From NCBI GenBank assembly GCA_011364905.1, contig RDNZ01000024.1:1-43269 (forward strand): a stretch of 43,269 nucleotides of DNA, in the 5' to 3' direction. The stretch comes from Candidatus Thorarchaeota archaeon (lineage in GTDB: Archaea; Asgardarchaeota; Thorarchaeia; Thorarchaeales; Thorarchaeaceae). Of this stretch, positions 3,111-23,370 are shown piece after piece (the first letter of the stretch is position 1; the number at the start of each line of letters is the position of its first letter). Under the pieces are notes generated by a model, which ran no database searches, was not told the origin of the DNA, and was given only the letters and a program-made list of their open reading frames with translations. The position numbers were made by a program, and so were the translations under genes.

Positions 3111-3659
3111 CTAGTAGTTGTTGCCCTTTTCTCGCTGAGCCACTAAGACCTCTGCGAGATTTTGAAAGATGTCAACAATTCCCTCGCCAGTCTTGGCTGA
3201 TGATTCGATGTAGGGCATTCCGTGTTTGTCTGCAAACTCATGACCCTCAGATGGTTCAACCACTCTGTCAGGAAGGTCCGTCTTATTCGCAACTAGTACC
3301 AGCGGAATCTCCTTGTTGATGGCTTTGTGGAGCTCATCGAGCCACTCTTCAAGCACGATGAAGGTCCGTCGTCGGGTCACATCAAATACCAAGAGACCTC
3401 CACTCGACCCACGGTAGTACATGGGCCTTAGAATCTGAAAACGGCTCTGCCCGGCTACGTCCCAGATCTGTAACTTCACTGTGACATTGCCAGTGTCGCG
3501 TTTGATGTCGACGTTCTTGACTGCGAACTGACTCCCTATCGTGGTCTTGTAATCTGTACGGAAGAATCCGTGAGAGAACCTGGTGACTATAGCTGTCTTT
3601 CCTACGGCTCCTTCGCCCAAAACGACTATCTTGAACAAGTAGTCGTAGCTCGAGCTCAT
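3111..3659 (-). CDS. Rab-like small GTPase (Ras superfamily)
   Basis: YDYLFKIVVLGEGAVGKT (G1), TIGSQF (G2), KLQIWDVAGQ (G3), YYRG, NKTD (G4), ESSAK (G5). Start set at ATG 3659, which follows a GGAGG. Confidence 0.95.
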   Translation of the reverse strand: MSSSYDYLFKIVVLGEGAVGKTAIVTRFSHGFFRTDYKTTIGSQFAVKNVDIKRDTGNVTVKLQIWDVAGQSRFQILRPMYYRGSSGGLLVFDVTRRRTFIVLEEWLDELHKAINKEIPLVLVANKTDLPDRVVEPSEGHEFADKHGMPYIESSAKTGEGIVDIFQNLAEVLVAQREKGNNY

Positions 3660-3810
3660 AGAACAAACCTCCGATCGGACAAATGCACCTGGGCCCCATG
3701 CGAGCTGCTCATCTTGTAAAGTCACCTGAATGTGATAGGCGGTTCAGCAACAAAGCGATAACAAGTTGATGCCACTAATAAGGTTTCGTAAGATTTAGCA
3801 AAGGTGTGAG

Positions 3811-4539
3811 TCATGGTTTGTTTAGGATTTGAAGCTCATTCTCACGAGGGATTACGACGGTTGTTTCGGGAAGTTCTCTTTCAACGAGTTCCTTAAACTT
3901 CCGATGTTGATGGTCCTCACCATGAACAGCAACTGCGAAGGTGGGTTTCATGTCCATTGCCATTGCGAGAGCCACCCCAGGAGCGCAAGTTGGAGAAGGA
4001 TCTCCTGTTGGGAGGAATGCTACATCCACCTTGTCTTTGCTAACGGGCCAATACCCGGAGTCAGCAGCATGAAACGCTCTGAGCCGACCAATCTTAACTC
4101 GATATTGAATGATGGGTCGAGGATGAACGCCTCGATGCAGCTCCACCTTGATGCCATTGAGATTATACTTCGGTCCGTCCCGTACACCTTGAAACACCTC
4201 AGGTCCGGAGAGAACGCTCTCAGGTGGAATTCGCGACCGTAATTCTTCGACCATGCTGAACTCGCTGATGATCTGCGCTTGGGTCTTTTTGTATAACGCA
4301 ACTGCGTTGCTGAGGTTGTAGTGGTCGTGATGGCTGTGACTGTAGGTGATGAGATCAAGGGACTGGATGTGTGCCTTTGCTTTAGAGAAGAGGTCTGCGG
4401 GATCAAAGAGGACTACTCTATCTCTGGCGCGAAAGAGGATACTTGCATATCCAGCATAAATGAATGCAAACTCATTCGGACTCAATTCAGTTCCATAGAG
4501 CTTATCGACATTTTCTACAAGACTGCTCTCATCGGACAA
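3811..4539 (-). CDS. Metallo-beta-lactamase fold hydrolase (UlaG/UPF0173-like)
   Basis: LFDP, SHSHHDH (HxHxDH), FHAADSG and AVH motifs. GGTGA RBS before the TTG start. Confidence 0.85.
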   Translation of the reverse strand: MSDESSLVENVDKLYGTELSPNEFAFIYAGYASILFRARDRVVLFDPADLFSKAKAHIQSLDLITYSHSHHDHYNLSNAVALYKKTQAQIISEFSMVEELRSRIPPESVLSGPEVFQGVRDGPKYNLNGIKVELHRGVHPRPIIQYRVKIGRLRAFHAADSGYWPVSKDKVDVAFLPTGDPSPTCAPGVALAMAMDMKPTFAVAVHGEDHQHRKFKELVERELPETTVVIPRENELQILNKP

Positions 4540-4607
4540 GGATTTTCACCGCAATTCTTCATGCCTTTAGGTTATAATAATCAGAGTTTGCGTTTGCGCA
4601 AAGCCCA

Positions 4608-5402
4608 TCAACGGTTCTTGACTACCCACTCAACGAACTCCCTGAGCAGTCGGTTGAACTCTTCGGCATTTTCAACCATAGGAATATGATCAGCATTCCT
4701 CACAACTGCAATGTCTGCCCGTTGAAACTTTTTCTCTAGCTGCGAGGCCATAGCGGGAGTGATGATGTCGTCGTGTTCTCCAACAAGAATGAAGGTTGGG
4801 AGGTCAATCTCTCCGACTCTGTCAGCAATACTGAAGTCTCTGCATGCAGCCATGTCTCGAGCCATGATTGAGGGATGTGAGATTCGGATATCGTCTTCCA
4901 GTTTTTTCAACTGATAGGACTCAGTATAATCCTCGTAGACTTGATGCTTGAAGAAATATATTCGGTCATCAATTGTTTCCTTTATGAGTCCGGTTCTGAG
5001 TTTTGATAGTTGAAGCTCGTAGGATGTATCGACCAAGACAAGAGCCATGGGCTTCGGCACATTCGCTCTCAGAGCATAGGACATGACGATTCCCCCACCC
5101 ATAGAGTGACCCACAAGAATGAAATCATTCAGGTCCAAGTGCTTGACGAGAGAGACAATCTCTGCTGTGAAATCCCCCTCAACTGATGGCTCACTCACTC
5201 CATTCTCAGATTTCCCATGGCCTGAAAGATCTAAAGCAATCGTTCGAAACGTCTCTGAGAACTCACGGATTTGGAGCGACCATATCAGATGAGAAGAACC
5301 AGCACCATGGACAAAGACCAGAGAAACACCAGATAGTTTGTCAGCTCTTTTGTCAACATCCACGTAGTGAATCTTTGTCCTGTTATGTTCGAAGAAAGGC
5401 AT
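4608..5402 (-). CDS. Alpha/beta fold hydrolase
   Basis: FVHGAG, DLSGHGKS, GHSMGG nucleophile elbow, GEHDDI, ADH. Start moved to MPFFEH at 5402 to avoid overlap with the divergent gene. Confidence 0.9.
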   Translation of the reverse strand: MPFFEHNRTKIHYVDVDKRADKLSGVSLVFVHGAGSSHLIWSLQIREFSETFRTIALDLSGHGKSENGVSEPSVEGDFTAEIVSLVKHLDLNDFILVGHSMGGGIVMSYALRANVPKPMALVLVDTSYELQLSKLRTGLIKETIDDRIYFFKHQVYEDYTESYQLKKLEDDIRISHPSIMARDMAACRDFSIADRVGEIDLPTFILVGEHDDIITPAMASQLEKKFQRADIAVVRNADHIPMVENAEEFNRLLREFVEWVVKNR

Positions 5403-5490
5403 TGTTCGCAGCCAACTACGGTCATCAATATAGAGGTTTTTGGCACAGCGAGAATGTTCACCTGTAGGTATCTTTTTCTCCATCACTGCA

Positions 5491-6888
5491 ATGAATAGAA
5501 TTGTGATCCCCGTGACCGAAAAGCTGTTTGGGACAACAGGCGTTAGAAAAATCTACGGTGAGGAATTCGACCTTGAGATGGCGTTGAATCTCGGAAAAGC
5601 TCTTGGTACACATTTGGGCAAAGGAACCGTTCTATTGGCACGGGATGCTCGGATAACAGGTCTCATGGTGGCCAATGCGTTGACTTCAGGTTTAGTGTCA
5701 ACAGGCATCGATGTCATTGATGCTGGAATCATTCCAACACCAACCCTCGCATTCATCACCATGAAGCAAAAGTTCGATGCGGGTATTATGGTCACAGCCT
5801 CCCACAATCCACCAGAATACACGGGTGTTAAGTTCTGGTCTCGCAATAGCATGGGATTCACTCAAGGGGAGGAAAGAGAACTCGAGAAGATATATGACTC
5901 CAAGCAATTCAATGTAGCTAGATGGGATGAGCTGGGCAAAGTCAGTCACAATGAAAGCGCTGTTGATGAGCATATCGACGCGCTTCTTGAAATGTGCGAT
6001 GTGGATACCATTCGCAGTAAGTCATTCAGAGTCGTTGTTGATCCCGGAAATGGAGCTGCTTGTCTTCTTACTCCCTATTTGATGCAACGTTTGAACTGTC
6101 AAGTTGTGACAATCAATGGTCAGTTAGACGGACACTTTCCTGGAAGACGGTCTGAACCAGATGAGGATTCTCTTGGAGACCTTATCCAGATGATCAAGAA
6201 GACTGGTGCGGCCCTTGGGATCGCTCATGATGGAGATGCTGACAGAATTGTCTTTGTCACAGAGAAAGGAGAAGTAGTGAGAGGGGATCGGACCATCGCA
6301 CTATTGGCACAGCAAGCGCTTTCTACATCAAAGAGCAAAACTGTGGTCACAACCGTTGACAGTTCACTAGTGCTTGATGAGACCGTTGAGAGAGCTGGCG
6401 GGAATACGATTCGTACACCTGTGGGAGATATTCAGGTCGCAGTTAAAGTGGTTGAATCAAAGGGAGTCATTGGCGGAGAAGCATGTGGAGTGTTCATTTT
6501 TCCTGACGCTCATCTCGCCCCTGAACCATTTCTTGCAGCCTGCAAGGTCCTTGAACTAATGGCGAGGACTGGAAAGTCATTTGGTGAGTTGGTCACGACC
6601 ATTCCTCAGTACCCTCTCCTCAAGAGCAAAATTGCTTGTCCAAACGATAAGAAAGAGAGTGTGATGTCCAAAATTGCTACTGTTCTCCCAGAAAAAGTGG
6701 GTGACGTGAAGGAGGTCCTCACTGTAGATGGATTGGGAATCACTTCCAACCAGGGATGGGTATTGGTAAGGCCTTCAGGAACAGAACCAGTGATCAGGAT
6801 TACCTGTGAGGGACAGTCCAAAAATGCTGTAGAAAAGATTCTAAAGATAACAGAGGAAGTAGTGAGTAGCACTGTAGCCTCTGCCTGA
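5491..6888 (+). CDS. glmM: Phosphohexomutase (phosphoglucosamine mutase / phosphomannomutase family)
   Basis: LFGTTGVR, TASHNPPEY phosphoserine loop, HDGDADR metal loop, GGE, VRPSGTEP. Start is ATG 5491 or GTG 5512. GlmM versus PMM specificity is uncertain. Confidence 0.85.
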   Translation: MNRIVIPVTEKLFGTTGVRKIYGEEFDLEMALNLGKALGTHLGKGTVLLARDARITGLMVANALTSGLVSTGIDVIDAGIIPTPTLAFITMKQKFDAGIMVTASHNPPEYTGVKFWSRNSMGFTQGEERELEKIYDSKQFNVARWDELGKVSHNESAVDEHIDALLEMCDVDTIRSKSFRVVVDPGNGAACLLTPYLMQRLNCQVVTINGQLDGHFPGRRSEPDEDSLGDLIQMIKKTGAALGIAHDGDADRIVFVTEKGEVVRGDRTIALLAQQALSTSKSKTVVTTVDSSLVLDETVERAGGNTIRTPVGDIQVAVKVVESKGVIGGEACGVFIFPDAHLAPEPFLAACKVLELMARTGKSFGELVTTIPQYPLLKSKIACPNDKKESVMSKIATVLPEKVGDVKEVLTVDGLGITSNQGWVLVRPSGTEPVIRITCEGQSKNAVEKILKITEEVVSSTVASA

Positions 6889-6968
6889 ATCGATGCAGGT
6901 ATTACGATGCAAACAAGGTTTATAGAGGAAACTCACGATTCCTTTCTGAATATTGGGGTCAAGAAACA

Positions 6969-7352
6969 ATGCCAGATGAAAGAAAAGAGCTTGAAGCAGA
7001 AATTATGGATGAATTCGAGTGGGCTCTAAAGGACCCCAATGAAGAAAAAATCCGACAGCTGGGAGAAGTTGTCAGCATTATCACTACCAAACTCACCGAG
7101 GCTATTACTAACATCCAGATCGCAATCATGGATCTAGAGAGCAAGGTCGATGCCTTGGAGAGTAGGATGTCCTCAGCGGCTGTTCGAGCCCCTGCCGGAG
7201 ATGCAGCTTCAGCAGGCGCTGGAGGAGGACCAATCCCAACAATGGCGAGAGCGCCCACACCAAAACCAGCTGGAACTCCTGGCGGCCCAACAACAATGAT
7301 GGGAGAACTAAAACAGCTCTTGGCCGCTCGTAGAAGAAAAGCAGATGGCTAA
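6969..7352 (+). CDS. Small coiled-coil protein with Pro/Gly/Ala linker and a C-terminal Ena/VASP-FAB / WASH-C-like motif; candidate actin regulator
   Basis: Heptad helix (about residues 28-68), low-complexity linker, C-terminus GGPTTMMGELKQLLAARRRKADG. TATA-like AAGGTTTATA at about 6915-6924. The CDS is well supported; the function is inference. Confidence 0.7.
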   Translation: MPDERKELEAEIMDEFEWALKDPNEEKIRQLGEVVSIITTKLTEAITNIQIAIMDLESKVDALESRMSSAAVRAPAGDAASAGAGGGPIPTMARAPTPKPAGTPGGPTTMMGELKQLLAARRRKADG

Positions 7353-7366
7353 GGGTCGGCTTTCAA

Positions 7367-8035
7367 CTAAATCAGTCTGTCTACACTGTTCTTTTCATAA
7401 AATGGACCGGCATGCTCTGGAAGCGTAATCGCAAAGGCTTCAGCCCTTTTGCATTTTGCTTGAACTCCGCGTAGTCGTGTTCTAGCGTCATACAGTTGTG
7501 TGTAGAATGAGTCAGCCTTCTTGACTTGAGATTTGTGTTTCTTTAGAGCTGCGAGAGCTGCATCGTAGGATGCGGAGATATCAACGAGAACATGAGGGTG
7601 GGAGATCATTGTGTTGATTTCCATGTTATATATGCGTTCTACCCTGTGAGCATCATCAAAGACGGTCTTGTGTGATGCCCACTCCACAGCCTGTTTCACA
7701 ATGAGTGCACACTGCTGATGATTTCGATTGTAGTCATCTTCATGATGGGTAATGACTATTGTTGGCCGGGACTTCAGAATTGCTCCAACTACTTCGTTAA
7801 TGAGTTCCTCGCCAATCGCAAAATCGTCCCTCTCGCTCAGGTACAAGTTATGAGCACCAAGAATGCCACAAGCAGCCTTCAACTCCTCATTCCGCTCCTC
7901 ATTTCCAGTCATACAGTGGATATCGACCACAATACCTTCGTCAGCATGTCTTCGTATAGTGCCACCAGCTCCTATTGACTCATCGTCAGGATGCGCTACT
8001 ACAACAAGGATCTTTCCCTCATCTGAACCGCTCAT
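7367..8035 (-). CDS. bshB: PIG-L/LmbE family deacetylase, BshB-like
   Basis: VAHPDDESIGAGGT, VDIS, HKSQ and RG...AEAF motifs. Divergent from bshA. Confidence 0.8.
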   Translation of the reverse strand: MSGSDEGKILVVVAHPDDESIGAGGTIRRHADEGIVVDIHCMTGNEERNEELKAACGILGAHNLYLSERDDFAIGEELINEVVGAILKSRPTIVITHHEDDYNRNHQQCALIVKQAVEWASHKTVFDDAHRVERIYNMEINTMISHPHVLVDISASYDAALAALKKHKSQVKKADSFYTQLYDARTRLRGVQAKCKRAEAFAITLPEHAGPFYEKNSVDRLI

Positions 8036-8142
8036 AGAGTCACGTTAAATACACCTTCTAATCAAGGTTTGGCAGCATTGCAGTTGTCCAGACCATTTGC
8101 CTTAAAGGGGATGCAGGATAATCAGAAAAGAAGGTGCACTAT

Positions 8143-9306
8143 GTGAGGATTGGAGTCAACCTGTACCCCACAGTTGGTGGAAGTGGCTATCTTGCAACCC
8201 GTCTGGGGCAGGAATTGGCTCGTCGGGGGCACATTATTCACTTCATCACCTATCAGAGACCTTTCTCTCTTATGTGGGAGCAGACCACTGGCGTCTATGT
8301 CGATCTAGTCGACAGCATTGATTACCCACTCTTCAAAGCCACAGGTCCGCCTTACACCATGGCTTTGACATCAAAAATCATCAAGGTTGCTACGGACTCT
8401 AAACTTGACTTGCTTCACGCTCATTATGCAATTCCTCACGCAATGGCAGCATATATGGCAAGGGAGATTTCAGGTATCCCCTATGTCTTGACTTTGCATG
8501 GTTCGGATGTTCATACTCTTGGGCAAGATCCCGCTTACAGACCTGTCGTAAAGCATACAATAGAGCGGGCAGATGCCGTCACAGCTGTTTCCGAATTCCT
8601 AAAGAAGAAAGCACATGAAGAATTGGGAATTGAGAGAGAGATTCAGGTAATCCCCAATTTCATTGATACATCTACATTCAGGCATCTTAACGGAGTACGA
8701 CTCTTTGTAGAGAGCGGGTGTGTGGGACTTAGAAAAGCCGATGAGGCAGTTGAACTGCAGCCTGAGGAGAAGATTCTCCTTCACGCCTCGAATTTCCGTG
8801 AAGTGAAGCGAGTTGTTGATCTCGTAGAAATAATGAGAATCGTTGCAGACCACTTTCCAAAGGCAAGGTTGATTATTGCAGGGGATGGGCCAAGTCGTAT
8901 AGAAGTCGAGAGAAAAATTGAGGCATTGGACTTGTGTAACAATGTTCACCTACTAGGGGTAAAGAGCAATATGCAGGAAATAATGTGTTCAGCAGACCTG
9001 TTTCTATTGAACTCAACCCTGGAGGGAATGCCGCTGGTCTTGCTTGAAGCGATGTCGTGTAGTCTTCCTGTCGTGACTACGCCGGCAGGAGGCATTCCTG
9101 AGCTCGTACGTCCGGGAAAAGATGGAGTAGTGACCAAAGGATTCGGACAGGAAGAATACGCTCAGGCAATCATCGAAATGCTTGAGAATGATGAAAAACG
9201 AAAGAACTTAGGGAAGGCAGGAAGGAAGCGCGTCGAGGAATCATTCTCTGCTAAGCAAATTGTAAAAATGTATGAGAAAGTATTCGAGGAAGTAGTTTCA
9301 AAATAG
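8143..9306 (+). CDS. bshA: N-acetyl-alpha-D-glucosaminyl L-malate synthase (GT4 glycosyltransferase)
   Basis: BshA-specific segments YPTVGGSG..AT.LG..LA.RGH.IHFIT, PPY..AL.SK, LDLLHAHYAIPHA, TLHGSD...G.DP, H.SNFR.VKRV.D. Start is GTG 8143 or 8134. Confidence 0.92.
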   Translation: MRIGVNLYPTVGGSGYLATRLGQELARRGHIIHFITYQRPFSLMWEQTTGVYVDLVDSIDYPLFKATGPPYTMALTSKIIKVATDSKLDLLHAHYAIPHAMAAYMAREISGIPYVLTLHGSDVHTLGQDPAYRPVVKHTIERADAVTAVSEFLKKKAHEELGIEREIQVIPNFIDTSTFRHLNGVRLFVESGCVGLRKADEAVELQPEEKILLHASNFREVKRVVDLVEIMRIVADHFPKARLIIAGDGPSRIEVERKIEALDLCNNVHLLGVKSNMQEIMCSADLFLLNSTLEGMPLVLLEAMSCSLPVVTTPAGGIPELVRPGKDGVVTKGFGQEEYAQAIIEMLENDEKRKNLGKAGRKRVEESFSAKQIVKMYEKVFEEVVSK

Positions 9307-9322
9307 GAGGCGGAGAACTTCT

Positions 9323-11038
9323 TTGAACCCGAGTGTCTACGAAGTCTACGAGAACTTCATCTGGAAAAACCAAAAGCCCGATCTTGCAAAAACGCTCTAT
9401 GGCACACCCCCAATAACACTTGACGGAGTAGTAGATGAAGTTCCAAATCTAGTGGGATTATACAAAGACATGCTCTGGCATATTCCAGAGAGGATGGACA
9501 TTCTGAAGAAAACTCTCGTTGAGAGCAATAGGAAACTCGGTTCGTTGACACCAAAAGTCAGAGAGAGCATTGGAGCTCTTGAGAGTGGGGCTGTGGAATC
9601 CGCCCACCAGACTGTTGTGATGGGAGGCGCGGCCTACGTATTGAACAAGGCAGTGACTGCTGTGCAAATATCTGCTCTCGCCGCCGAAAAAGGGACACAG
9701 CTTGCACCATTCTTCTGTGTAGCAGACTACGACACAGTGCAGGCAGAGCTGGTCAATATCCGTACGCCTTTGATGGGACACGCTGGAAATCTAATCAGTA
9801 TGCCAGTTCCACAGGGATATGAGAATTCTCCAGTGAGTGTTGTCCCACTGCCAAGCAGCAATTGGCTGAGCCAAGTTGAGGAAGACACTCGGAACAACTA
9901 TCGTCCCATGTTCAAGAGCTTGGAGCGTCATCCAAGGATACTCGTCGAGGAACGACTTGAACAAGCACTGACTATTACCAGACGCGCATTCCATAACTCA
10001 CAGACACTCGGTGAGTGGTCTAAGAGAATCATGGCGCACCTTTTCAATATCGTGGGAGACCTGGGAATTCCGCTATTAACAGCCTCCGATCAAGGAATAC
10101 GCGAGCTTCTTGTTGAGGGTATGGAGTTCTTGCTTGCCAGAGAGAACAGAGAGCGATTTCTCAAGGCATTTGAAGAAACAACAAACCTCATTGAGGAGCA
10201 GGGCTATTCCCCAGGAATTGGACAAAGAGGTCCGGACTATGTTCCCTTCTTTTATGAGTGTCCCGGGAAAGAGTGCAACAGAAGCAGGATCGAACTTCAC
10301 TATGAGGACCTTGGGAGTACCGCAGTTCTGACTGGAAAGTGTCCGTCCTGCTCAGAAACAGTCGAGATTGAAACTCCCGCTGACGACCCATATCTGGGGG
10401 AGGTTGCTGGATATTTGTCACCACGTGTTGACTCCAGACAGATTTTGATAGACACCATTGTTCCTACAATCGCACATGTTGGAGGCCCTGGAGAAACCGC
10501 TTACTATGCGCAAGTCATCCCTTCTGCGAGGGCAATGGAGGTGCCTTTCCCACTTTTCATCAAGTATCCACGAGCCTACTTCAACACTCCATGGAATGAG
10601 GAACTAGCCAAGAGTCTGGAAAAGGAAGGATGCGAGGTTCTCCATCGAAAGGAAATGTTTGGCACAATGGGTAGTATTGCAAAGTTCAGAAGAAAGAATC
10701 AGTTTGATGAGATGAATGACGCACTTACGAAACTCAAAGAACTGATTCTCAGTACACATTCCTCAATTAACAAATGCTTGGAGGAAATCTCAGTAGAAAT
10801 CGATAAAGCATCCAGACAGGACATGGAGAAACTACAACTCAAAAAGCTGGATGTGGAACGGTATTTGTCCTGGGTCTTTGGTCAATACGCAGAGAACAAA
10901 CTCGGGCAGGAATCATCTTGGTCATGGATAGAGTGGGCAATCAACTCTGGTTTTTCTGATCTGTTTGGACCCTACATTAGGGCATACGTTGGTCCTATGA
11001 AAAACGGTGCAACCGTATTCGTGAACTTCTCATTGTAA
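9323..11038 (+). CDS. bshC: Bacillithiol biosynthesis BshC-like putative cysteine ligase with a Zn-ribbon-like insertion
   Basis: HQ...GG..Y..NKA, PFF.VADYD....E, LSPRV..R, PTIAHVGGPGETAYYAQ, YPR, a C-terminal coiled coil and QE motif, all collinear with BshC. Lies 16 bp after bshA with a GGAGG RBS. Confidence 0.85.
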   Translation: MNPSVYEVYENFIWKNQKPDLAKTLYGTPPITLDGVVDEVPNLVGLYKDMLWHIPERMDILKKTLVESNRKLGSLTPKVRESIGALESGAVESAHQTVVMGGAAYVLNKAVTAVQISALAAEKGTQLAPFFCVADYDTVQAELVNIRTPLMGHAGNLISMPVPQGYENSPVSVVPLPSSNWLSQVEEDTRNNYRPMFKSLERHPRILVEERLEQALTITRRAFHNSQTLGEWSKRIMAHLFNIVGDLGIPLLTASDQGIRELLVEGMEFLLARENRERFLKAFEETTNLIEEQGYSPGIGQRGPDYVPFFYECPGKECNRSRIELHYEDLGSTAVLTGKCPSCSETVEIETPADDPYLGEVAGYLSPRVDSRQILIDTIVPTIAHVGGPGETAYYAQVIPSARAMEVPFPLFIKYPRAYFNTPWNEELAKSLEKEGCEVLHRKEMFGTMGSIAKFRRKNQFDEMNDALTKLKELILSTHSSINKCLEEISVEIDKASRQDMEKLQLKKLDVERYLSWVFGQYAENKLGQESSWSWIEWAINSGFSDLFGPYIRAYVGPMKNGATVFVNFSL

Positions 11039-21189: not shown

Positions 21190-23370
21190 CTAGTCTGGTA
21201 AGATGCTTCGTATCTTGCTTGCCAACTTCGCGACTACCAGTTTATTTCCGCCAATCACCACAATGGGGAGCGACACTTTGTCGTCACTGACTCCTATTGT
21301 AAACGCTGCTCGAAGACTATCAACTCTGAAGCAGACAAAGGTGAAGTCATTCTCATGAATCAACTCATGGAGTGTCATTCCTGCGGATTGCAGTCCAGAG
21401 GTGACCTCCTCAGCCAGCTCAAGTGGATCAACACCCTCTCTCTCCACAAGAAGAGTCTCTCGAACATCCTTCTCAGAAGTGAATAGAAACTTATGTGAGG
21501 CACGGCTATAGAGAACCTGCCTTGTCATTGCCTTTCCAAGAAGTAGTGCTGAAAGCGGCCCAAATTTCTTGATACGAATCTGATCAACATCTAGTTCAGT
21601 TATGGGAACACGCTCAAGCTCCCACTCCATGTCTGTTGATTTTGGTTCAGTAGGAGGCTCTTCAACCCGAGGCGCAGGTTCATCAGTGATGTCATAGTCC
21701 TGCTTTTGCTGGTCAAAGAGCGTCTTGATATAATCCTTCATCCAACCATCTAACACCTTCCAGTCTTCCTTACTGAGTTTCAATGGAGGTCTAGGGACAT
21801 CTGGAAGGTCCTCAGTAGTTGTCTCCGCAGGTTCGGGAGGCATTTCCTCAGATTCTTTCTCTTCAGGAACGGGTTCAACTTCGTCTTCTACATCCTCTGG
21901 AACCAGAAGTCGTACAGCCTCGAAAAGACCAGACAGTCTATCAGATCCTCCGTGTTTTGAAAGCCGTGGCCTTGCTTGCATGATGAAACCACGCTTGTTC
22001 TCTGTTGTCTGGTCAAAGACAAGGGCAACGCCTCTTGGCAAGCTGCTGATGAACACCTTGTCCCTAAACTGCTCAGGCATAACCGCAGGAGCTCTTTGCT
22101 GAAGCGCTCTGATATCATTGTCATGAGACAATGAATGAGAAACTATCAGGTCAGCTTGAGAGATGGCATCGTCAGATACTGCCGAAGGCTGCTGTGTACA
22201 TAGGACAAGACTGCAACCAAACCTGCGACCAAGCTTAGCATATGCAACTATGGCATCCTTGGCTGGTGTATGCCCGGACCTCGGCACAAGCGTGTGCGCC
22301 TCATCAATAATCAACCATGTTGGAGGCAGTTCCTCACGAGCGCTGGTTCCTTCATCAGTCCAAGACATCCTGTAAGTCAGGACCTGCCGACAGAGCATGT
22401 TAGTTAGAATAGCAAGCACCGGTTCTGCATCTGAACCAAGCGGCGCAACATCAATGACTGTGATCTGTCCAGCGATGGCAAGGTCCTGAGCACTGGTTCC
22501 TCCTGGATGAAACACGCCTAGCCGATCAGCCCGTTTCAGTCTTTGAATTAATGCAGTCCGTGTCGATGGCTTATAGAGCTCTTCTATAGCTGGATTAGCC
22601 TCGATGCAACGAATCATGTCCTTGATACTGAAATCACGCTTCAGGGAAACCTTCTCTCCTGAGTCCAATGCGTACCCCTTGCGAATACTATCAAGGGTCT
22701 CTCCGATGAGATTCTCCATGGTCGTACTCAGAGACCCACCTTTCTCAAGCACATAGCCCCAGTCTGACACATTCAGCTCTCGGGGACCAATGGATAGCGG
22801 AAACAATCTTGCTTTCTTCTTAACTTCGTCAGGAAGGCCCACATAGGTTCTGCGAGGAATATACACTGATACAGGAAATCCTTTGGCCTCCAGGTTCCAC
22901 TTCTTCAGGAGCTCGGCTTGGTCATCATTCTGATCTACCATCTGTCTGAACACATCGACAGTGTCAACAACAACAGCTGCAACCTCAATTTCCCTGCGTT
23001 CCATTGCAAGAGCAAGCTCTTCAGCTATGATGCCTAGTGTGTAGCTCTTTCCTGAACCTCGTTTTCCAGCCACAAACATCACATGGGGGCTCATGAGATC
23101 TAGATTGACAGGCATTCCCATCAATGATGTGAGAATATCATCTGAGGTCTCTGCAACTCCTCCAATAAAGCCTAGACCTCCCGTATAGTATTTCCTGTGG
23201 AATGACTCTGAACGGCCCAGTACAATCCCTACGCTGAGATCAACCAGTAGATCCAACGGGTCACCTATACGTGGATGATAAGAGAGCGCGGACTTGGGTA
23301 ACAGCTCCACTGGTTTGTCCAAATTGGCCGTATCAATTTCATCTTCATCTGGCGTGGATGGTTTTCTCAA
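21190..23370 (-). CDS. HerA/FtsK-superfamily ATPase (DUF87) with an acidic Pro-rich linker and a C-terminal alpha/beta domain
   Basis: Walker A GKRGSGKS, Walker B LIIDEAH, GRRFG, TQQPS, HGG. GGAGG RBS before the TTG start. Confidence 0.88.
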   Translation of the reverse strand: MRKPSTPDEDEIDTANLDKPVELLPKSALSYHPRIGDPLDLLVDLSVGIVLGRSESFHRKYYTGGLGFIGGVAETSDDILTSLMGMPVNLDLMSPHVMFVAGKRGSGKSYTLGIIAEELALAMERREIEVAAVVVDTVDVFRQMVDQNDDQAELLKKWNLEAKGFPVSVYIPRRTYVGLPDEVKKKARLFPLSIGPRELNVSDWGYVLEKGGSLSTTMENLIGETLDSIRKGYALDSGEKVSLKRDFSIKDMIRCIEANPAIEELYKPSTRTALIQRLKRADRLGVFHPGGTSAQDLAIAGQITVIDVAPLGSDAEPVLAILTNMLCRQVLTYRMSWTDEGTSAREELPPTWLIIDEAHTLVPRSGHTPAKDAIVAYAKLGRRFGCSLVLCTQQPSAVSDDAISQADLIVSHSLSHDNDIRALQQRAPAVMPEQFRDKVFISSLPRGVALVFDQTTENKRGFIMQARPRLSKHGGSDRLSGLFEAVRLLVPEDVEDEVEPVPEEKESEEMPPEPAETTTEDLPDVPRPPLKLSKEDWKVLDGWMKDYIKTLFDQQKQDYDITDEPAPRVEEPPTEPKSTDMEWELERVPITELDVDQIRIKKFGPLSALLLGKAMTRQVLYSRASHKFLFTSEKDVRETLLVEREGVDPLELAEEVTSGLQSAGMTLHELIHENDFTFVCFRVDSLRAAFTIGVSDDKVSLPIVVIGGNKLVVAKLASKIRSILPD

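Follow-up and report, generated by a model that had tools for sequence, protein, structure and literature searches.

Does a 127-residue protein encoded on a Thorarchaeota contig act on the actin of its host? The question was raised by a first-pass annotation of a stretch of 43,269 nucleotides from a Candidatus Thorarchaeota archaeon (contig RDNZ01000024.1; we refer to the whole stretch as the window), which proposed that one small gene encodes a minimal Ena/VASP- or WASH-like actin regulator made of a coiled coil, a flexible linker and an F-actin-binding-like tail. Eukaryote-like actin, profilins and gelsolins occur in Asgard archaea, whose cultured members crawl and grow actin-filled protrusions (PMC12050087, PMC13716822). 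Within the available text of these papers, no filament elongator, bundler or nucleation-promoting factor is named for Asgard archaea (PMC12050087, PMC13716822); in the corresponding parts of the reviews and of the 2026 motility paper, profilins and gelsolins are the only named Asgard actin regulators and known polymerases are lacking (PMC13716822).

The gene, its promoter and its neighbours

The open reading frame at 6969..7352(+) has 127 codons, includes its stop codon within these coordinates and encodes a protein of 127 aa that we call P0001. The reading frame and translation quoted in the first-pass annotation match the window sequence exactly, and the quoted tail, GGPTTMMGELKQLLAARRRKADG, is found at 7281-7349. 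The features of the locus are as follows.

6910..6924, plus strand: archaeal promoter, a BRE-like purine-rich stretch followed by the TATA box TTTATA (6919-6924), assigned by sequence conservation
6955..6959, plus strand: putative Shine-Dalgarno-like purine run GGGGT, 10-14 nt 5' of the start codon, read from the sequence
6969..7352, plus strand: coding sequence of P0001, supported by its translation, by homologues down to E 1e-70 and by its presence as one copy per genome in 79/85 family genomes

We regard the gene as real because it has 331 close homologues, because the family profile finds one copy in 79 of the 85 genomes of the window's own Thorarchaeota family and because positions are conserved along its length. 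The TTTATA box lies 50 nt 5' of the P0001 ATG, and of 66 Thorarchaeota loci, 60 have a TATA-like hexamer between –46 and –50 as part of a conserved AAGGTTTATAG block. Since the box recurs at this position across Thorarchaeota loci, the gene has its own promoter, as had been suspected from the window alone. Other Thorarchaeota loci listed have GGAG or GGGG about 12 nt 5' of the start. Many database gene calls use an upstream start ('MQTRFI') that is out of frame in the window; this peptide is the translated TATA box, and the start is thus a mere artefact of the promoter sequence.

No actin, profilin or gelsolin gene is found on the window's contig; actin is on contig C35 at 4452-5555, profilin on C23 at 21426-21761, and gelsolins are on C35, C68 and C27. 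The P0001 gene is preceded by glmM (5515-6888) and directly followed by a bacillithiol-type cluster (7367-11038) that holds a PIG-L deacetylase gene (bshB-like, minus strand), a GT4 glycosyltransferase gene (bshA-like) and a gene for a BshC-domain protein. The order glmM-P0001-bsh genes is fixed in Thorarchaeota, in 57-74 loci depending on the gene (the two genes next to P0001 keep their place in 72-74, bshA and bshC in fewer). In Lokiarchaeota, the neighbours of the family gene are instead Pelota, a radical-SAM gene, a gene for a 206-aa protein of no known kind and Elf1, and the long-form locus described below is surrounded by housekeeping genes. Because the neighbours are conserved in Thorarchaeota and different in these other two settings, we read the Thorarchaeota neighbourhood as inherited (frozen) gene order and not as functional linkage. 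A small GTPase of the Ras/Roc family (Pfam Ras E 1e-49) is encoded 3 kb upstream, at 3111-3725 on the minus strand, and occupies the same position in 47 Thorarchaeota loci.

A coil, an arm and a conserved end helix across Asgard archaea

We built an AlphaFold2 model of P0001 with a 27-sequence family alignment. In this model, a helix (residues 2-21) is joined by an invariant D-P turn to a long helix (residues 25-73, pLDDT about 90), which is followed by a disordered stretch (residues 74-109, pLDDT below 50) and a final helix (residues 110-126, pLDDT about 77). These parts map onto the window as follows.

6972..7031, plus strand: helix 1, residues 2-21, with the invariant motif FEWAL-x-DP (AlphaFold2 and alignment)
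7041..7187, plus strand: helix 2, residues 25-73, heptad coiled coil, presumed oligomerisation stalk (AlphaFold2 pLDDT about 90, heptad register, PDB profile matches)
7188..7295, plus strand: Ala/Gly/Pro linker, disordered, residues 74-109 (AlphaFold2 pLDDT below 50; the most variable part)
7230..7268, plus strand: conserved island PIPTMARAPTPKP in the linker, residues 88-100 (57% identity amid variable linker)
7296..7346, plus strand: C-terminal basic helix MMGELKQLLAARRRKAD, residues 110-126, family signature and putative docking helix (AlphaFold2 and conservation)

The N-terminal domain is acidic, with 17 D/E and 9 K/R, and residues F16, E17, W18, A19, L20, D22 and P23 are invariant among close relatives of P0001. 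The heptad helix claimed at the outset holds up: residues 25-73 have a clean register in which the a positions are E, G, T, I, I, V and M and the d positions are I, V, L, I, L, L and A. In the PDB, the family profile matches hundreds of generic coiled coils, most of them trimeric. The Ala/Gly/Pro linker of about 35 residues is likewise present, as predicted-disordered residues 74-109. Across Thorarchaeota, linkers are 33-58 aa long and consist of 30% A, 19% P and 17% G, with no Pro run longer than 3. The linker island has the consensus PIPTM-x-[KR]-APTPKP, in which T91, M92, A95, P96 and P98 are invariant among close relatives; from its sequence, it is possibly a second short linear motif. The C-terminal helix has a net charge of +4, a hydrophobic moment of 0.19-0.27 and a mean hydrophobicity of –0.32.

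To see how conservation is distributed over these parts, we measured identity to the window protein region by region in 66 Thorarchaeota species representatives. Tail residues 110-124 show 91% identity (entropy 0.35 bits), both N-domain helices 59% (1.0-1.4 bits) and linker residues 74-87 28% (2.1 bits), so that the tail is the most conserved segment of the protein, as the actin proposal had predicted. Such a pattern, a near-invariant tail on a variable linker, marks a short linear docking motif. Beyond Thorarchaeota, we compared 24 tails from all Asgard lineages sampled and found that the E-L-K core is invariant and the next Leu nearly so; the core E-L-K-x-L-[LF]-x-x-R/K is kept where the remaining sequence is only 25-35% identical. 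At high score, the tail motif occurs once per genome.

The linker behaves differently in different lineages. The expectation that linkers expand to poly-Pro was borne out in Loki-type relatives outside Thorarchaeota, where runs of 4-5 Pro occur, and not in Thorarchaeota, where runs do not exceed 3. Outside Thorarchaeota, the linker has a greater length, with a median of 64 aa, and contains 26% P; 8 of 10 have 4-5-Pro runs, e.g. GGPPPPPGGPPGG, and tracts of the GPPPPPG type lie between the coil and the tail. The suggestion that the arm recruits profilin is accordingly doubtful for P0001: because the arm of the Thorarchaeota member is without true polyproline, recruitment of profilin-actin by this member is not expected.

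The family is confined to Asgard archaea in the searches that we made. The named proteins among the 331 close homologues are all from Thorarchaeota. We searched 1.84 billion cluster representatives exhaustively with the single sequence and obtained only 12 clusters, which share the same plan except for one weak match to a long insect protein and two members with unrelated C-termini. A pattern scan that covered 185,579 prokaryote species, each by one genome, gave 74 loci, every one of them in an Asgard metagenome-assembled genome (MAG), and matches in the ESM Atlas are to unnamed Thorarchaeota and Promethearchaeota clusters only. Across a sample of 400 genomes of the Asgard phylum, 246 have matches to the family profile; in most other Asgard families these are weaker full-length matches (E 1e-9 to 1e-15) to ORFs of 125-180 aa. 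Such distant members keep the plan: the N-terminal helix ('AEEFxxFL...') is followed by a coiled coil and then by a Pro/Gly arm, and the C-terminus reads '...P-x-S-L-R-G-A-I-M-G-E-L-K-x-L-F-A-K-R-K'. Full-text literature searches found no description of the family. We conclude that the P0001 family is real, novel and previously undescribed.

We compared this range with that of actin. Among the same 400 Asgard genomes, 359 have actin at E 1e-60 or better, as do 88 of 90 high-quality ones, and actin was found at E about 1e-130 in all five tested carrier genomes whose lineage label was lacking or different (two of them labelled 'archaeon'). The sole carrier without an actin match is a 1.4-Mb MAG; it is 82% complete and its congeners have actin, so we do not take it as a refutation. 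With the queries used, homologues are therefore found only in Asgard archaea, nearly all of them actin-bearing, and are not common in actin-less prokaryotes. In Asgard family f11, actin is present in 18 of 22 genomes and the P0001 family was found in only 1 of 22, which speaks against an actin partner.

A second size class, the long form of about 270-320 aa, was found in Asgard family f8 (27 of 31 genomes), and families f7, f9 and f10 have divergent copies of it.

L109:1501-2457, minus strand, and L110-L135 (alignment A6): long-form members (profile search, alignment)

When a long form is used as the query, its best matches in Thorarchaeota and Lokiarchaeota are the short-form genes themselves. 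By profile comparison, the N-domains of the two forms, helix 2 included, are homologous (hhalign probability 88%, E 3e-6). The long-form arm is Ala/Pro-rich with GAPNLSAAP repeats and is followed by two or three short helices that end in L-x-K-[VA], 'GISSADLMKAAANLQKAPE' and 'SATDIQDVKAGLTKVDPDEHRKER', plus 'TASAILEAKAKLKKV' in one genus. Next comes 'SMPASMALNMEVKDALAKRKSR', a basic helix that can be aligned with the tail profile of the short form (E 2e-4, probability 44%). On its 3' side are an acidic run in which a Phe is conserved and a strongly conserved terminal helix, 'KQMKEALQGELRDAFSSLLESD', that has an acidic end. AlphaFold2 predicts a short helix on each motif of the long form and disorder between them. 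In proteins of the L109 type, the LxKV helix precedes the basic helix by about 20-25 residues. A short-form member, L142:1129-1584(+), in genome G138 (6.0 Mb, one contig) ends in ...SLRGSIMDELKTLFSKRRTDDDDDD, so that this short form has acquired an acidic tail 3' of the basic helix.

The same ending is also found on GTPases. Genome G179 (Lokiarchaeota) encodes three Arf-like GTPases, 420-500 aa in length, whose C-terminus is a coil-arm-tail module, e.g. '...RVLDELKDLFAKKKRLDL'.

L143:1492-2748, minus strand, with L145 and L146 (genome G179): Arf-like GTPases with coil, Pro arm and ...ELKxLF-basic tail (sequence)

In Lokiarchaeota MAGs, one such GTPase cluster bears the annotation 'ADP-ribosylation factor-like protein'. 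The presence of the module on Arf-like GTPases implies that it is portable. On the GTPases inspected in three other genomes, we saw no coil-arm-tail ending. A search for longer fused forms in a set of 5.8 billion proteins gave only a glmM read-through gene call among the matches listed; this apparent glmM-P0001 fusion, P0190 (JGI contig, 472 aa), is most likely a read-through or frameshifted call of adjacent genes and not a real fusion.

Comparison with known actin-binding families

Human VASP has, in its EVH2 region, a G-actin-binding block (GAB, residues 223-239), an F-actin-binding block (FAB, 259-278) and a tetramerising coiled coil (343-380) (PMC10340426). The FAB sequence that the first-pass annotation quoted is correct, agreeing with residues 259-278 as printed (PMC10340426). 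The accompanying statement that the P0001 tail shares this pattern almost residue for residue is overstated: in the best local alignment, MMGELKQLLAARRRKA against a 15-residue VASP stretch, there are 9 identities and one gap, with a BLOSUM62 score of 34. As background, we aligned the human 20-mer to 15,143 ORFs of at least 60 aa from the same genome. The tail's score of 34 is tied at rank 5 to 8 of the 15,143 ORFs, unrelated ORFs reach 36-46, and the scores of GAB and FAB on P0001 relatives are within background. The likeness to the VASP motif alone is within chance.

Searches with profiles of known families point the same way. P0001 and 14 relatives have no above-cut-off match in Pfam, and for P0001, NCBIfam and PDB also gave sub-threshold coiled-coil noise. 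The WH2 model (PF02205) matches neither P0001 nor the 14 relatives at E up to 10, and when this model was run in six frames over five genomes, it did not pick P0001-family loci. The best WH2 matches in three Asgard genomes (sub-threshold, 13-16 bits) are at G015:C1:2474611-2474688(+), G138:C1:4228155-4228208(-) and G135:C1:3989012-3989077(-), in ORFs of 390-490 aa that are unrelated to the P0001 family. A search of the tail against known profiles, which had been put forward as a check, gave no support either: a tail-only profile run against the PDB returned one designed peptide and no WH2 or VASP match. Foldseek with the AlphaFold2 model returned designed helical bundles only (E above 5). The family profile has 564 generic coiled-coil matches, of which BRK1 (3p8c_E) is one, at 18 bits and E 0.03, and the Pfam CCDC53 model reaches E 5e-4 and 21 bits, under its cut-off of 24.6, in one long form only, with no match to P0001. 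Taken together, Pfam, the six-frame WH2 search, PDB profiles and peptide alignment detect no homology to VASP, WASH or WH2 and no clear homology to BRK1 or CCDC53. The likeness is accordingly one of motif and architecture and not a demonstrable homology, and every defining test for membership in the Ena/VASP, WH2 or WASP families comes out negative for P0001.

The architectural likeness to Ena/VASP consists of an oligomerising coiled coil (predicted here for P0001), a flexible region that contains Pro, and a basic helix that is short. The helix type common to the VASP FAB and the P0001 tail can be written hydrophobic-M-x-E-hydrophobic-x2-hydrophobic-L-A-RRRKA. P0001 differs in that it has no EVH1 domain; its N-terminus is a two-helix coiled-coil domain. 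In VASP the coil is C-terminal and forms a right-handed tetramer, whereas in P0001 it is N-terminal, and the Pfam and PDB searches gave no VASP tetramerisation match. The Thorarchaeota member also has neither a GAB nor polyproline, and its likeness to VASP is not statistically significant. The long form comes closer, as its LxKV helix followed by the basic helix mirrors the order GAB then FAB of VASP (PMC10340426). WH2-like helices are seen in the long form, where LxKV motifs lie 5' of a tail-like helix, and not in the Thorarchaeota members, in which LKK[VT] is present in 0 of 66.

With the WASP-family WCA region and BRK1/CCDC53, the family shares an N-terminal coiled-coil helix, a proline-rich region and short C-terminal helices, and the long forms add an acidic run and a conserved Phe 3' of the basic helix. 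In contrast, the Thorarchaeota member lacks LKKV, an acidic region and Trp, and Thorarchaeota genomes lack ARPC4-like genes. In the 66 Thorarchaeota members, we counted LKK[VT], acidic runs and Trp in the last 40 residues 0 times each, which agrees with the earlier observation that there is no acidic Trp tail. ARPC4-like genes (Pfam PF05856, above cut-off) are present in 26 of 31 genomes of family f8, 3 of 3 of f9, 21 of 22 of f11, 6 of 6 of f16 and 4 of 4 of f29; they are present in 0 of 85 genomes of the Thorarchaeota family and in 1 of 149 across two Lokiarchaeota families. No ARPC2 gene turned up in five genomes that were searched for it. The absence of ARPC4-like genes from all 85 Thorarchaeota genomes fits the prior expectation that P0001 does not activate Arp2/3, and the distribution of these genes tracks that of the long form only in part.

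The sole experimentally shown archaeal case of actin binding by a C-terminal helix is arcadin-2. In Pyrobaculum, the last 17 residues of arcadin-2 bind a hydrophobic groove of crenactin with a Kd of 31 nM (PMC5173319). P0001 is like arcadin-2 in that both are archaeal, and in arcadin-2 a conserved alpha-helix at the C-terminus by itself carries the interaction with the actin homologue (PMC5173319). The two differ in that the arcadin-2 gene lies beside crenactin in the arcade cluster and its product is a sequestering depolymeriser that relies on Trp, whereas the P0001 gene is unlinked to actin and its product has no Trp in the tail.

Two further candidates were rejected. Some members carry the JGI label 'outer membrane murein-binding lipoprotein Lpp', after Braun lipoprotein; we found no Cys, no hydrophobic N-terminus and no signal peptide or lipobox, and the Lpp model PF04728 matches one relative only (E 0.013, 16 bits, cut-off 29). 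The label is a coiled-coil artefact. The second candidate was an ESCRT-III MIM1 tail, the ligand of the Vps4 MIT domain, which follows the pattern [DE]xxLxxRLxxL[KR] at the C-terminus; neither a strict nor a relaxed form of this pattern is present in any of 111 family sequences.

Candidate partners of the tail

The best explanation of the data is that P0001 is a small cytoplasmic scaffold protein of an unnamed Asgard-wide family. Our leading reading, given a probability of roughly 0.4, is that P0001 may be an oligomeric stalk on which a conserved docking helix is presented in several copies, with actin as the most probable partner. The N-terminal two-helix domain would form a coiled-coil oligomer, probably a dimer or trimer, and each chain has a flexible arm, about 35 residues long, with the near-invariant, basic and modestly amphipathic helix at its end. 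Eukaryote-like actin would be bound multivalently, with the hydrophobic face M110/M111, L114 and L117/L118 placed on actin and the RRRK patch on its acidic surface, and several tails per oligomer might tether, bundle or feed filaments. The models for such tail action are the FAB block and coiled coil of Ena/VASP and the C-terminal helix of arcadin-2 on crenactin. The original proposal of an oligomeric archaeal actin regulator is thus consistent with the conservation of the tail, the poly-Pro of relatives, the Asgard-only range and the LxKV helices of the long form, and it is set back by the lack of homology and of linkage to actin genes. In the main text of a Lokiactin co-immunoprecipitation study, profilin, gelsolins, an ARF GTPase and BAR proteins are mentioned and no P0001-like protein is (PMC13716822), which is weak evidence against the actin reading.

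A docking partner other than actin is nearly as likely. Here P0001 would be an oligomeric adaptor whose end helix docks on a conserved Asgard protein, e.g. a small-GTPase, membrane-trafficking or ESCRT component, and the resemblance to actin-binding motifs would be coincidental. The portability of the coil-arm-tail module and its fusion to Arf-like GTPases argue for such an adaptor, as do the Ras-family GTPase gene 3 kb upstream in the window and the fact that the tail has no statistical link to actin-binding motifs and its gene no synteny with actin genes. However, the MIM1/Vps4-MIT version of this explanation fails (0/111), gene context indicates no alternative partner, and the LxKV helices and acidic runs of the long form are hard to explain without actin-type partners.

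It is rather improbable that the end helix, basic and amphipathic as it is, docks on acidic lipids in the manner of a membrane-targeting sequence, which would make the protein a membrane-associated coiled-coil tether and not a factor that docks on other proteins. A charge of +4, a hydrophobic stripe and a position at the extreme C-terminus after a flexible arm would suit such a helix, and the GTPase fusions suggest membrane-proximal biology; the hydrophobic moment (0.19-0.27) is only modest, however, the mean hydrophobicity is –0.32, its hydrophobic residues (Met, Leu and Ala) include no aromatic anchor, and the invariance of G112, E113 and K115 goes beyond what lipid binding usually demands. 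We think it very unlikely that P0001 is a generic structural coiled coil ('Lpp-like lipoprotein') or carries a nucleic-acid-binding basic tail, with no cytoskeletal role, since, although some members bear the JGI 'Lpp' label, the family profile weakly matches Lpp along with many coiled coils and RRRK patches can bind nucleic acids, the protein has no signal peptide, lipobox or Cys, the Lpp matches are generic and below cut-off, the N-domain is acidic (17 D/E vs 9 K/R) and nucleic-acid binding does not need the conserved hydrophobic face of the tail.

Returning to actin as the partner, a more far-reaching version can be put forward, although we consider it doubtful: the P0001 family would be the long-sought Asgard actin-assembly factor, in which the short form acts as a VASP-like polymerase or bundler and the long form combines WH2-type helices, a basic central-like helix and an acidic tail. 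The family would then be a prokaryotic forerunner or a convergent analogue of the logic of Ena/VASP and the WASP-family WCA region, predating eukaryotes.

A small, phylum-wide and highly conserved protein that combines a coil, a flexible (poly)proline arm and a conserved basic helix, and that has WH2-like long forms, makes a concrete candidate for the missing Asgard actin regulator. If the tail binds another partner, the family is still a new portable docking module that has been reused on Arf-like GTPases. If it binds actin, multivalent short-helix actin regulators arose before eukaryotes, and the family would provide a handle on how Asgard archaea build their protrusions.
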